DNA of 64,000 nt from a plasmid. Below, piece by piece: positions 42,001-51,000 of the stretch; position 1 is the stretch's first letter; every line of letters begins with the position of its first letter. The stretch lies in the NCBI RefSeq assembly GCF_053078305.1, contig NZ_CP166875.1. One strand, given 5' to 3'. The position numbers are program-made.

Positions 42001-45000
42001 GGTTTCATATATACTTATCCCGTATTCTGTGAGGCCCCCATTATCTTTCTCTGATTCCGCCAAGTTTCGTGGAAAGATGATGGGGGTTTTCCTTTATGGC
42101 CTTCTGAAACTTTTTTCAGCCTTCCGGCCCCGGCAAACTGCCGTCGTTTCTGCCATACATCCTGAATGCCTTATGGCGCATTCTGCCGTTTTCTGGCTTT
42201 CCGGACCGCGAGGATCCCAAAAGCCACTGAATAACGATCCGCAATATACCCCTTTTCCACCGCTTTGAAAAGCCGACACGATTTCTCTGATTTACCAGGC
42301 CTCTCATTAACCACCTAAAAAACGTCGTTTTTTTGAACTATGTCAAAAAAATAGACAATTCCACAAACGATCTTTTATGCTGTGTTTTTCATCATTTTTA
42401 GTAGAAGAGATCGCCTAAAATTTTTAAACGATCTAATCCTCCAGACACCGCACACAAATCAGCATAATATGCTGCTTTATCAAATATAACGATCTATTTA
42501 ACTGCTTATCTTCACTCTTGCCACAGATACATCCTTATGTAATATATTTGCCAGCCATTAATCCTGTTTGCAGGAGTTGTCGGTTTTCGCCCGCCTCGAA
42601 ACCGTCCACAAGGCTTACAAGAGTGCGTAAATCATGTGCCTGTCAGAACTGCAGGCCGGGCTGAACGAGGGTCAGCCGCTGTTTCCGACACATGCTTTAT
42701 GTATTCGCCGTTCACAACAACATCGAAGCCCCTCTGCGGGGATCGATTTTCGCGGAGCGTTCCGGATTTTGAATATCAGTGAATTACATCAACGCAACTG
42801 GTATCTGGCTCAGTACATCCCTGCCGGCAAAAACCGCGAACATCTCTTTTCCTGGCTTTCCGAACAACACGTCCTTCCCTGGACACCCCTGATACTGAAA
42901 AAGGTCCGCCGCACGGATAAAGTCTGTGGTTACCGTCGACATATACACGCCGTGTTTCCCGGTTACTTTTTCCTGAAAGCAGACCCCGAACGCCACAGCT
43001 TCACTCACCTTCGCCGTCACAGTGCCTTTCTGGACTTCGTGAAAATGGCCGGTGAAATCAAAACCGTCAGGGAGGATATCGTTCAGTCTTTGATGAAAGT
43101 GTACCCGGATCCTGCGCTCAATCCGGCAGCCAGGGAGGAGCTGGATGCTGCCTCCACCCTCTGGCTGACAAAAGCGCGTTACCAGTACCTCCTCCGGCTT
43201 GATGCACAGCCTCTGCCGGAGTCGAGGATCGCCCTGCTCCTGCACCTGGTATCTGATGACGGAGCGTTGACATGAAAATTGCTGTCTTAATTTGACGACT
43301 TTTCCCGGCCTTTATGGCCGGGATTTTTTTCCCTTCTGTTTCCACAATGCCCGGCACCGGTGACACCTGAGGGTGTACGGAGAGCGGCTGTCGGGCATTT
43401 TTTCAGGACGCCTTTATGACCATTCTATCCCAGGAAAACCCTGTCATTCTGTTACTGGAGAATATGCTCGAAGCACTCTCCACCGCCCCGGACAACATAA
43501 ACAACGAACGGCGTCGCCGGCGTTACCTGCTGAACTGGCTTGACACTGCCCGTCAGATGCGCGAGTTCAGAGGAATGGCTGAAGAGTTCACTACCCTGCG
43601 AAAACTGCTGGCCACCAATTCAGACATACCGGTAGCAAACACCCTGAAATCACTGCTGGAAAGTGGCAATAACGCAGCATTATACGACCTGTACCGCTTC
43701 CGCTCGGCTCTTTCCGCGTGCAGAAGTCTGGGATGGCAGATTGGCACGTGCGCATGGAACGACCAGCTGCTGAGTGAGACACTTTCCCGTGCGCAAACAG
43801 GTAAACGTCATATCCTGCAGCTGAACAGTACCAGAGACACCTTTTCCACCACGGGCAGAATGCTCAGACCGGTGGCATTTTCATTAATTCATCCGGCATC
43901 CCTCGAATCTTCAGAAGTGGAAGAGATATTCCGGGATGAAGGTTTTATACTCGCGCACGGACGCGAATGCAGCCTGAACGGCAGCGGCAGAAACATGCTG
44001 TCACGCATTCTTCATGTGGGGCATTCAGGTTTACCGAAAGCCGAATGGGGCATAGATCACAGCAATCACCTGTTACACTGAAATACCGGGACAGCCACAA
44101 CGGCAGCCACTCTCCGCTGACTTTTTTTCGCAAATCGCGGTTTGCTGATGTGGATGTCCCATTTTTTATTATCCGTCCTCTCCGGTTGTCATAAAGCGCA
44201 TTCCGGCGTGAGGCTTCTGTTGTTATCATCCCCTCCTGCAGACATCCCCTTGTCTTCTGATGACTGACGATATGCTTCTTCTGACAATTAAAGAAGCGGA
44301 AGCTTCACGCCATAATGTTGTTTGACTGACCTGCCACAGGAGGAAAAATGACACTGACGTTACTTACCGCGTATAACGCACCCTATCTGGCAGCCCTGAC
44401 TTTTGTTCTGCTTACTGGTATCGCTGAACTTATCGCCCTGCTCTGCGGACACTCCCTCTCTTCAGCTATGGATACACCTGATTTACCGGAGGGGCTGACA
44501 GGAGAGGCGCTGGACTGGCTGAACATCGGACGGATCCCCCTGCTGATCGTCCTCTGTATACTGGCAGGTTTTTTTGGTATATCCGGCATTCTCCTGCAGG
44601 GTCTTATTATTCATCTGCTGCAGGCTCCTGCCCCGAACATTCTCCTTGCACCACTTTGCCTGCTGCTGACATGTCCTCTCGTACACCGCACCGGCAGACT
44701 GATTGCCCCCTGGTTACCCCGTGATGAAACAACGGCGCTCACCGAGGAGGCATTCATCGGGTGTATGGCCACCATCACCGGTTATCACGCAGTGGCGGGT
44801 TCCCCCTGTGAAGGTCGCTTCACAGACCGCTTTGGGCAGGTTCATTACCTGTTGCTGGAGCCGGAGGCCGGGAAAGAATTCAGACGAGGAGACAAAGTGA
44901 TTATTGTCTGCCGTCTTTCCGGTTCCCGCTGGCTGGGCGAACTGAATCCCTGGCCGGATGTTCTTTAATCCCGACATATGTAAGCGTCAACGGAGCACCG

Positions 45001-48000: not shown

Positions 48001-51000
48001 TTTGTTCAGGGTGTGCAGAACACCGTTGCGGAAGACTTATCCAAAAACGGTCTGGAGCTTGAAAGTGTGTCGCTGACAAGTTTCAACCAGACTGCACGGG
48101 AACATTTTAATCCTGACAATGCCTTTGATGCTGAAGGCCTGACCCTTCTGACCCAGGAAACAGAACGTCGTCGCCGCGAACGTAACGAAGTTGAGCAGGA
48201 TGTTGAAGTGGCCATCAGGGAAAAAAACCGGGATGCACTCTCCCGACGTCTGGAGATTGAACAGCAGGAAGCCTTCATGACTCTGGAGCAACAACAACGG
48301 GTAAAAACCCGTACGGCAGAGCAGAGTGCCAGTATTGCTGCTATTGAAGCTGAACGACGTCGTGAAGCAGAATCCGCGAGAATTCTGGCTGAACGTAAGA
48401 TAGAGGAAGCCGAAATCGAACGACAGCAGATAGTGCGTACCCGCCAGGTCGAAGCCGAACGGGAAGTGGCCATACGGGAAATTGAGCAACAGCAGGCAAC
48501 CGAAATCGCCAGCCAGGCCAGAGCCATTGCCGTGGCTGCAAAATCGGAAGAGCAGTCACAGGCAGAAGCCCGGGCAAGTAAAGCACTGGCTGAAGCCGTA
48601 CAGGCCCAGCAGGATGTGGAAACCACCCGCCAGACTGCGGAGGCCGACCGTACCAAACAGGTTGCCCTGATTGCTGCTGCTCAGGAAGCTGAAACGAAAG
48701 CGGTTGAACTGACGGTTCGCGCACAGGCTGAAAAAGAAGCAGCCGAACTCCAGGCAGCAGCAATTATTGAACTGGCGGAGGCCACCCGTCAGAAAGGTCT
48801 GGCAGAAGCAGAAGCACAGCGCGCACTGAACGATGCCATTAACGTGCTTTCGGATGAGCAGACCAGCCTCCGCTTCCGTCTTGCCCTGCTGGATGCATTA
48901 CCTGCCGTCATAGAGAAGTCCACAGAACCAATGAAATCCATTGACGGCATTAAAATCATTCAGGTGGATGGCCTGAATGGCGGTGTTACCCGTGGTAAAA
49001 CAGCAACAACCGACATAAGTGGCGGAAATCTCGCTGAACAGGCGGTAACCGCCGCTCTGGCTTACCGTACACAGGCTCCGCTCATCGACTCCCTGCTGAA
49101 GGAGGTGGGGTTATCCGGTGAAGGACTTACAGCCCTGACACGTCCACTGGTCATGCCAGCCCCGGAAAAGGTCCCGGATGTCAGCGAACCGGTAACCGCT
49201 CCGGATAACTCAGAACCACAACAGGTTTAATCCCCGTGCCGGAATTTTTCCGGCATCTTTTTCACAAAGAATGCCCTCACGGGATATTCTGGTTTAAAAG
49301 AGGATTGAAAATGTCCGCAGAAAAATTCAGAGTTGTCATATACACCAATACATGTGAAAAGAAAGTCAGTTATATTCCTGCAACAGAAGATATAAACATC
49401 GCTATAATGCCATTTCAGACGGCAGACAATGGCTTAATTATTGTGTGTCAGAACTCCCGTATAATACGACGCAAAGAGCGTATACCCGGAAGCAGCTGTG
49501 AATGGAAAGATGTGACATTAGCACTAAAATCCAGAAACCGCGTTCAGTTATAGCCTGACAGCCTGCTTTTTATCCCTCAGAAAAGGGGGATAAAAATTAA
49601 ATATTTCACAACCGAGATATTTTTCAGGAATGCAGATTATTTTATGTTATGACCAACAGAGAAACAGGCATGAGAACAATCACAACGCGTGAACAATTAT
49701 TAATTAATGGGAGAGTCCACGAAAGAATCGCCACACATATAGTTACAGGAGCTCATGGGTATGAAACGCTTTGCACAAATGGCTATAACGTCAGATACAA
49801 CAAGGCGCAGCAACTGGTTGAAAGCTGCGAAAAAATAGCTGAAGGCAAACTACCTGTTACCTGTCCTGTCTGTTTCGCCATATGGCAGGATGTACACAGG
49901 TTCACCCACGTTGACTTTGACACACAATCGGGGAAAAGTGATTTTATTGATACCTGCCATTCGGAGATCATAACCGGAAATGTTTCAATAACAGGCAAGA
50001 AATAAAATAATGCTCCAGTTCTGAAATGCAATTCACTCTTATAATCCCCCCACGAACATGAACGTTCATTATCAATAACCCGATGAAATGATATTCATCT
50101 GAAGGCCAGTTACCCGCCACCTGTCTTATACCGTAACCCGTAATATACCGGATTTTATTCTATGCAAAAAAAATCACTTACACTCCTTCTGCCGTCATTA
50201 CTCAGCGGCTGTACGGCATTTAATGCCACGCCTGTTCCTGACACCACACCTCCGGCTCTGGTGTTCGTCGACGGACAAATTCGCGAAAGCGCTGCCATTA
50301 TCGCCCATACGCAAAAACGTCTGCTTCCGCCACCGGTGACCCGCCCTGTGACGCCGCCCCGCCCGACAACAACAGCGACGCCCACAACCGCAGTCAGCAG
50401 CCAGAGTACCGCACTGCCTCCCCGCCCGCTCCTTCAGGCCACACAGCTGCCCGCACTGGTTATGACCGGTAAACCCGGTCAGTCATCCGTCGTTTATTTA
50501 CGTGAGGCACGTCAGCGCTCCGTCAGTGACTGGATACGCCAGTTGCTGCCACCCGGCTGGCAGTTCCGGCAACAGAACGCTGCCATACCGGCACTGAACA
50601 AACGCCTCCCCGTCTGGTCCGTTAATGACCAGTGGCACCGGGCACTGAATACTCTGCTGACCGGGCAGCAACTGTACGGACATATGGACTGGAACAGGAA
50701 AATACTGACTGTCACGACCACTGCAGCACCGCCTGTTGACCTCACGGCACCGCAGGGTTCACAGAAAACAGCGGACACACCACGTAATCCGTTCAGGAGC
50801 ACAACCGGAACAGCGGCAGACCAGGCACAGGTACCACCTGCCGTCAGCGCTTCCCGGGTTCAGAGCACAACAGGGACATCCGGTACATCTGCGCCCCGCA
50901 CAACCACGCCAGCCCCAGTGGTCACGAAACCGGTAGCGCCACCACCACAGAAGGTCACACCGCCACGGCAGTGGAAAATGGAAAAAGGGACCACGCTGAA

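Follow-up and report, generated by a model that had tools for sequence, protein, structure and literature searches.

In Escherichia coli K-12 the adjacent genes yqiJ and yqiK (b3050-b3051) encode a DUF1449/OB-fold protein and its flotillin-family partner, and are separated by a spacer of exactly 26 bp. Operons that pair an NfeD protein with an SPFH (stomatin/flotillin) protein are known as well, for example yuaF-floT/yuaG of Bacillus subtilis, in which the SPFH/flotillin gene is immediately preceded by one for a small membrane protein whose C terminus forms an OB fold. Insertion sequences (ISs) of the IS66 family carry the gene trio tnpA, tnpB, and tnpC between imperfect inverted repeats of ~20–30 bp; a repeat beginning with GTAAGCG is a hallmark of the family in ISfinder, and 8 bp is the usual length of its target duplication both in ISfinder and in the literature on IS679 and IS66. 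In the 64,000-nucleotide stretch of plasmid contig NZ_CP166875.1 (RefSeq assembly GCF_053078305.1) analyzed here and referred to throughout as the window, a complete copy of the IS66-family element IS682 occupies the spacer between a yqiJ-like and a yqiK-like gene. The explanation considered very likely for the locus as a whole is that IS682 transposed into the yqiJ-yqiK spacer, with silencing of yqiK as the likely consequence, at a locus subject to recurrent decay. The element, the behavior of its family, the gene pair, and the position of the pair in the plasmid backbone are all already known, and the sole novelty, relative to the collections searched, is the insertion site.

Insertion into the yqiJ-yqiK spacer

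The octamer CGACATAT stands directly outside both ends of IS682 as a perfect duplication (Table 1). It occurs three times in the window, and the chance of an 8/8 match at two positions independently fixed by the ends of the IS is 4^-8, or ~1.5e-5. Subtraction of the IS and one octamer leaves a spacer of 26 nt, TCCCGACATATACAGAGGTTCTCACT, that lies between the TAA stop codon of yqiJ (44966–44968) and the ATG start codon of yqiK (47536). An earlier note on this DNA, made from the sequence alone, had described the IS, the duplications, the 26-bp spacer, and the GAGG site correctly, and all of the coordinates that it gives hold.

The empty site was rebuilt by joining the flanks without the IS and one octamer, and the resulting 2,342-nt sequence served as a query to search 5,426 complete E. 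coli genomes (megablast) and the 72,556 plasmids of PLSDB. In both collections the rebuilt site is identical to IS-free plasmids at 2342/2342 bases in a single aligned piece. The IncK2/Z plasmid pL2-87 (NC_025145.1), for example, aligns to 100% of the query with 100.0% identity, and over the longer rebuilt stretch corresponding to window positions 43300–50200 it is 99.95% identical, again in one piece. Because the rebuilt site equals IS-free plasmids exactly, the arrangement is a simple transposition of IS682 into the yqiJ-yqiK spacer. The earlier note had described an intact IS66 element that had inserted cleanly and recently, and had proposed comparison with related plasmids lacking the IS as a means of telling insertion from recombination; that comparison confirms insertion.

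The occupied site was found in neither collection: no PLSDB record covers at least 80% of a 4.9-kb query containing the IS, and none of the complete E. coli genomes covers at least 80% of a 301-nt probe of the left junction. Together with the perfect duplications and the occurrence of 0 substitutions in 2.3 kb of flanking sequence, this absence from both databases indicates that the insertion is private to the window plasmid in the collections searched and probably recent.

An origin by homologous recombination involving two copies of IS682, or by resolution of a composite transposon or cointegrate, would bring together flanks from different molecules, and the setting is favorable to such events in that plasmids of E. 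coli strains that make Shiga toxin (STEC) are mosaics and IS66-family elements are abundant in such strains; E. coli genomes having any match contain a median of 3 matching places and a maximum of 47. However, copies at different sites would yield unlike flanks, whereas identical 8-bp direct repeats and exact one-piece restoration of the empty site are the signature of simple transposition. The empty-site match effectively refutes an origin by recombination, which is accordingly given almost no weight. No second copy of IS682 is present in the window, a further point against recombination, and a composite structure around the element was rejected on the same ground. That the position of the IS might be an artefact of assembly, with a repeat having been collapsed or wrongly joined here, deserves mention because multi-copy IS elements commonly cause misassembly, but a misjoin would not produce a perfect 8-bp duplication exactly at both termini of the element, and the flanks rejoin into a known contiguous sequence; this explanation, too, is exceedingly improbable.

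Identity of the element

The element begins with GTAAGCGTCAAC... at 44980 and ends with ...GTTTACGCTTAC at 47512. Its terminal inverted repeats have 24-nt arms that are imperfect, matching at 20/24 positions (83% complementary), and when the two ends are aligned both start with GTAAGCGT. The genes are ordered tnpA-tnpB-tnpC on the minus strand with a 4-nt overlap between tnpA and tnpB, their open reading frames (ORFs) are open and full length, and all three products score above the curated NCBIfam cut-offs. The gene trio, the imperfect repeats beginning GTAAGCG, and the 8-bp duplication that characterize the IS66 family are thus all found in the window element.

Compared with database copies among the complete E. 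coli genomes, the element is 99.8–99.9% identical over 100% of its length; the name IS682 is taken from the annotation of the matching copies ('IS66-like element IS682') by the NCBI Prokaryotic Genome Annotation Pipeline (PGAP). The database copies share with it the order tnpA-tnpB-tnpC, the lengths of the proteins, the termini GTAAGCGT...ACGCTTAC, and the 8-bp duplication. It differs in its insertion site and, from the closest copy, by 3 nucleotides, which result in 3 amino-acid changes and 0 stop codons: V90M in TnpA and A277P and F436C in TnpC (window residue first, then that of the database copy). By its sequence, then, the element is identified as an intact copy of the already known insertion sequence IS682 and not as a new IS.

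The closest IS682 copies are nested inside tnpC of another IS66-family element, as in NZ_CP042350.1 (3619714–3622326). The nested copy has the same termini as the window IS and is bracketed by a perfect 8-bp duplication of its own, GAGAAAGA. Its insertion is a single inherited event common to O157, O26, O111, O145, and other strains. Regarding a target-site preference of IS682, the five best matches represent this same inherited insertion and therefore supply one independent comparison site. The 8-bp length of the IS682 duplication is supported by two independent sites, CGACATAT and GAGAAAGA.

The yqiJ-yqiK pair

The YqiJ-like protein matches the Pfam families YqiJ_N (1.5e-15) and YqiJ_OB (2e-14), and the YqiK-like protein matches Band_7 over residues 35–200 (6e-19) and Flot over residues 402–526 (1.3e-38). 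Amino-acid identity to the E. coli K-12 proteins is 55% for YqiJ and 82% for YqiK, and the nucleotide sequences of both genes are 100% identical to those of the IS-free plasmids. The window pair resembles K-12 yqiJ-yqiK in gene order, Pfam domains, and the length of the spacer once the IS is removed, but differs in being plasmid-borne between traC and pilI, in being a distinct paralogue, and in being split by the IS. No chromosomal place matching the DNA of the pair was found by megablast in the complete E. coli genomes. From these comparisons the pair is assigned as a plasmid-borne paralogue of chromosomal yqiJ-yqiK.

The relation to NfeD-SPFH pairs is looser. The window locus shares with yuaF-floT/yuaG the placement, immediately 5' of an SPFH/flotillin gene, of a gene for a small membrane protein that ends in an OB fold, but its upstream protein has the YqiJ_N/YqiJ_OB composition, with no match to NfeD (Pfam PF01957) even at E <= 10, and its flotillin scores 83.3 bits in the test for the FloT equivalog (NCBIfam NF058507), below the cut-off of 700. 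The YqiK-like protein is a member of the flotillin family and not a FloT orthologue, and the resemblance to NfeD-SPFH pairs is interpreted as one of architecture rather than orthology. In the earlier note the locus was called a co-transcribed NfeD/flotillin pair. The flotillin part of that description is supported by the Band_7 and Flot domains, whereas NfeD is imprecise for an OB-fold protein of the YqiJ family; co-transcription is what the tight spacing, the same 26 bp as in K-12, and the K-12 arrangement would predict.

A role of the pair in defense was rejected, as the PADLOC defense models gave 0 families at E <= 0.01 for the two proteins.

Consequences for transcription of yqiK and the pil operon

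Since both ORFs and the ribosome-binding site of yqiK are intact, any effect of the insertion would be transcriptional. The genes of IS682 lie on the minus strand, reading away from yqiK and toward the 3' end of yqiJ, so that transcription of the IS cannot drive yqiK. A standard scan with a 9/12 criterion revealed no plus-strand promoter facing yqiK within the final 400 nt of the element. A lenient scan in the same direction returned matches at 8/12 positions or fewer, the best being TTGAAC-16 nt-TATCGT with an upstream TG (47281–47308) and TTGAAG-16 nt-AATGAT (47364–47391). A hybrid promoter having its -35 element in the inverted repeat and its -10 element in the flank was rejected by eye because the spacing is wrong. 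At the point where yqiJ transcripts would enter the IS there is a terminator-like hairpin (Table 1), which the terminator scan overlooked because the loop exceeds the limit of the scan; the 65-nt stretch at 44966–45030 that includes it folds at -21.9 kcal/mol, with z = -3.67 relative to shuffled sequences. Rho-dependent polarity classically acts on untranslated antisense RNA of the kind that would follow, 2.5 kb in length.

The direction of the IS genes, the weakness of the promoter matches, and the hairpin at the entry to the IS make silencing of yqiK likelier than its rescue, and, given the insertion, yqiK is likely to be silenced or nearly so by polarity. Continued expression of yqiK, either from an outward promoter in the tnpA end or by read-through from yqiJ, perhaps aided by the TraB-like protein, would instead mean that the pair has been rewired. 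In keeping with such expression, the ribosome-binding site and ORF of yqiK are untouched, weak plus-strand promoter-like matches exist in the final 250 nt of the IS, the scan detected no canonical plus-strand intrinsic terminator inside the IS, and a regulator of the NusG family is encoded upstream. However, no site passed 9/12, and matches as strong as those obtained are common by chance; transcripts from yqiJ would meet a stable hairpin followed by UUUAUU and then 2.5 kb of Rho-prone RNA; and the leader contains no ops-like site. With respect to the last point, the yqiJ and pilI leaders contain no sequence within 2 mismatches of the RfaH ops element (GGCGGTAGnnTG), whose count across the window is near that expected by chance. 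Continued expression is therefore regarded as unlikely. In the earlier note the flotillin gene was said to rely, after the insertion, on read-through or an outward promoter from the IS, a suggestion that is sound as logic but probably too optimistic, there being a hairpin at the entry and no convincing outward promoter.

Silencing of yqiK by polarity remains the preferred interpretation. Several considerations nevertheless weigh against it and against the wider account of a recent insertion. Read-through, or weak internal promoters, may give rise to residual transcription of yqiK; the upstream TraB-like RfaH/NusG regulator, if it acts on this unit, may suppress termination; the promoter of yqiJ-yqiK is not convincingly located; and 'recent' is a relative term, resting on the duplications, the flanks, and the absence from databases, not on a dated phylogeny.

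For the genes farther downstream, the terminator-like hairpin after yqiK and the promoter-like site that follows it suggest that the pil operon is a separate transcription unit, which probably keeps its own promoter and is little affected by the insertion.

The sequence of events proposed here can be described as follows. A complete IS682 transposed into the 26-bp spacer between the plasmid yqiJ-like gene and its flotillin partner yqiK, duplicating the 8-bp target CGACATAT and leaving both reading frames and the ribosome-binding site of yqiK untouched. An antisense IS of 2.5 kb now separates yqiK from the promoter it is presumed to share with yqiJ. Polarity would most likely silence transcription of yqiK wholly or almost so, whereas yqiJ would still be made and pil would be little affected. 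The event is seen as a further step in the repeated decay of an accessory pair that is dispensable.

Distribution and loss of the pair in related plasmids

DNA of the pair was matched in 434 of the 5,426 complete E. coli genomes, always on a plasmid, and in 228 of these genomes coverage of the pair reaches 80% or more; in PLSDB it was matched in 512 records, 258 of which cover at least 80%. Flanked by traC and pilI, the pair is intact in 258 PLSDB plasmids and 228/5,426 complete E. coli genomes. In a protein search nearly all plasmid copies fall into one tight allele group, of 264 records at 95% identity or higher; the remaining matches are a handful at 60–90% (a 728-kb Salmonella record at 81%, for example) and 40 distant homologues below 60%, those listed being mostly on large replicons of unrelated bacteria. 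Published maps of Shigella sonnei IncB/O/K/Z plasmids label yqiJ and yqiK (PMC8549364), and the pair appears on the map in a study of an IncK blaCMY-2 plasmid, where yqiK is named, as speculation only, a candidate modulator of biofilm and motility (PMC7824781). The pair is a standard lineage-specific accessory of the IncB/O/K/Z-type backbone, carried by a large share of such plasmids, and the view in the earlier note that its occurrence next to a pilus operon is out of the ordinary finds no support.

In about half of the matching plasmids the full pair is absent, having been deleted or truncated. In one deletion class, exemplified by pSH273-2 (NZ_MG299135.1, 2413–2556), the sequence corresponding to window positions ~44400–49130 is lost. 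The deletion spans an overlap of ~10 bp between the two aligned pieces (window 44391–44400 and 49131–49140) that contains the microhomology AGCCCTGAC, and leaves an in-frame fusion ORF of 144 bp that is annotated 'hypothetical protein'. A second class retains only a 181-bp piece of yqiK (NZ_MG825371.1, 2192–2372). Plasmids with the enterohemorrhagic E. coli (EHEC) genes toxB and espP retain a traB-traC-yqiJ remnant in which yqiJ is cut by other ISs (NZ_CP027578.1, 7001–9984; NZ_CP028111.1, 9285–11045): in plasmids of the pO26 kind a different IS66-family element adjoins the truncation of yqiJ at nt 361, and in an O121 plasmid the truncation is adjoined by IS600. The yqiJ-yqiK locus is thus hit repeatedly by IS elements. 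Most plasmids with a damaged pair are still typed as conjugative.

Its deletion or truncation in about half of the related plasmids marks the pair as dispensable, and the IS682 insertion, as a further neutral or nearly neutral hit to a locus that is expendable, is in line with such loss. A quite different and improbable proposal is that the YqiJ/YqiK pair is an adjunct to conjugation of the I-complex, either providing a membrane-microdomain scaffold on which the thin type IV pilus or the type IV secretion system is assembled or modulating motility or biofilm of the host, which would make the window plasmid a natural yqiK knock-down. Conjugative relatives frequently lack the pair, which argues that any such role is conditional at best. 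A study of an IncB/O/K/Z plasmid by transposon-directed insertion-site sequencing (TraDIS; PMC10286972) mentions yqiJ, yqiK, or flotillin neither in its main text nor in two supplementary files, and so offers no direct evidence either way. If a scaffold role were real, the IS682 insertion would uncouple YqiJ from YqiK and provide a ready-made test strain; near-identical plasmids in which the pair is intact, split by the IS, or deleted constitute a natural allelic series for study of YqiJ/YqiK function. The value of the observation otherwise lies mainly in annotation, as a new site of a known IS and as the recognition that the flotillin pair is an often-lost standard accessory, not a peculiarity of this plasmid.

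Plasmid backbone and other features of the window

Table 1. Positions in the window of IS682, the yqiJ-yqiK pair, and neighboring features.
Feature	Position	Strand	Remarks
IncFII-family RepA gene	41059–41931	-	565.9 bits; PK-repZ upstream
PK-repZ regulatory pseudoknot	41944–42094	-	Rfam, 166.7 bits (gathering threshold 44)
traB-like gene, NusG/RfaH-family regulator	42634–43275	+	weak NCBIfam RfaH match, below cut-off; NusG family protein in relatives
traC-like gene	43416–44081	+	traC or IncI1 TraC in relatives (IncK2/Z); no NCBIfam match
yqiJ-like gene	44348–44968	+	intact; 206 aa; membrane protein with C-terminal OB fold
Target-site duplication CGACATAT, left copy	44972–44979		8 bp
IS682 (IS66 family), complete	44980–47512	-	2,533 bp; genes read right to left
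Terminal inverted repeat, tnpC end	44980–45003		pairs with 47489–47512
Terminator-like hairpin, then UUUAUU, at entry of yqiJ transcripts into IS	44980–45019	+	inverted repeat and adjacent sequence; putative function
tnpC, IS66-family DDE transposase	45010–46623	-	537 aa; NCBIfam NF033517, 442.7 bits (cut-off 180)
tnpB, accessory gene	46654–47004	-	116 aa; NCBIfam NF033819, 121.1 bits (cut-off 50)
tnpA, accessory gene	47001–47426	-	141 aa; NCBIfam NF047595, 85.5 bits (cut-off 74)
Terminal inverted repeat, tnpA end	47489–47512		adjoins yqiK
Target-site duplication CGACATAT, right copy	47513–47520		8 bp
GAGG ribosome-binding site of yqiK	47524–47527	+	8 nt before ATG; 3 nt right of duplication
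yqiK-like gene, flotillin family	47536–49230	+	intact; 564 aa
Terminator-like hairpin with T-run, directly 3' of yqiK	49236–49256	+	candidate from consensus scan
Promoter-like site 5' of pilI	49261–49290		candidate from consensus match
pilI, first gene of type IV (thin) pilus operon	49311–49553	+	position of annotated pilI of pL2-87

Relatives having the identical layout traB-traC-yqiJ-yqiK-pilI are typed IncK2/Z, MOBP, and MPF_I. By their profile matches, PK-repZ and RepA are identified as the I-complex replicon of the plasmid, and these repZ/RepA profiles, together with the traBC and pil genes and the near-identical typed relatives, point to an IncB/O/K/Z-like (I-complex) backbone. IS-free IncK2/Z plasmids such as pL2-87 have the traB-like and traC-like genes, yqiJ, yqiK, pilI, and the genes from pilL onward in common with the window at 99.95–100% identity; they differ in lacking the IS and in having a single CGACATAT, whereas the window plasmid additionally carries STEC cargo (an ehx operon and an autotransporter adhesin). 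A scan of the whole window with Rfam gave no RNA family in or adjoining the yqiJ-yqiK locus, the only hits being PK-repZ and RNAI elsewhere.

The enterohemolysin operon occupies positions 3106–10310 on the minus strand and comprises genes for an HlyD-type adaptor (3106–4545), an HlyB-type ABC exporter (4549–6666), and EhxA (6719–9733; NCBIfam 2314.6 bits, cut-off 2000), together with a probable acyltransferase ORF (9717–10310). This operon marks the window as part of a virulence plasmid of the STEC/EHEC type, which is a mosaic. Also on the minus strand, at 11347–15708, is a gene for a trimeric autotransporter adhesin of 1,453 aa with EmaA/Ata/YadA-like repeats and a C-terminal anchor, scoring far below the equivalog cut-offs.

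RNAI, the ColE1-type antisense regulator of replication, is found by Rfam (59.8 bits) at 17466–17571 on the plus strand, beside minus-strand ORFs at 17645–20051 for which relatives annotate a colicin-like pore-forming protein. RNAI and the colicin-like genes suggest that a small ColE1-like colicin plasmid has integrated into the large plasmid. Two pairs of diverged repeats, one inverted (24878–25238 and 38734–39094, 92.5%) and one direct (24186–24393 and 40094–40302, 90.9%), bracket a module of ~13 kb for sugar-acid metabolism that includes a CdaR-like regulator (25879–27018) and, as annotated in relatives, a GntP permease and a glycerate kinase. The module looks like cargo inserted beside a duplicated exonuclease/yacAB segment of the backbone. 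Downstream of the pilV region, at 61483–62721 on the plus strand, lies a tyrosine recombinase gene whose product is probably the shufflon recombinase Rci.

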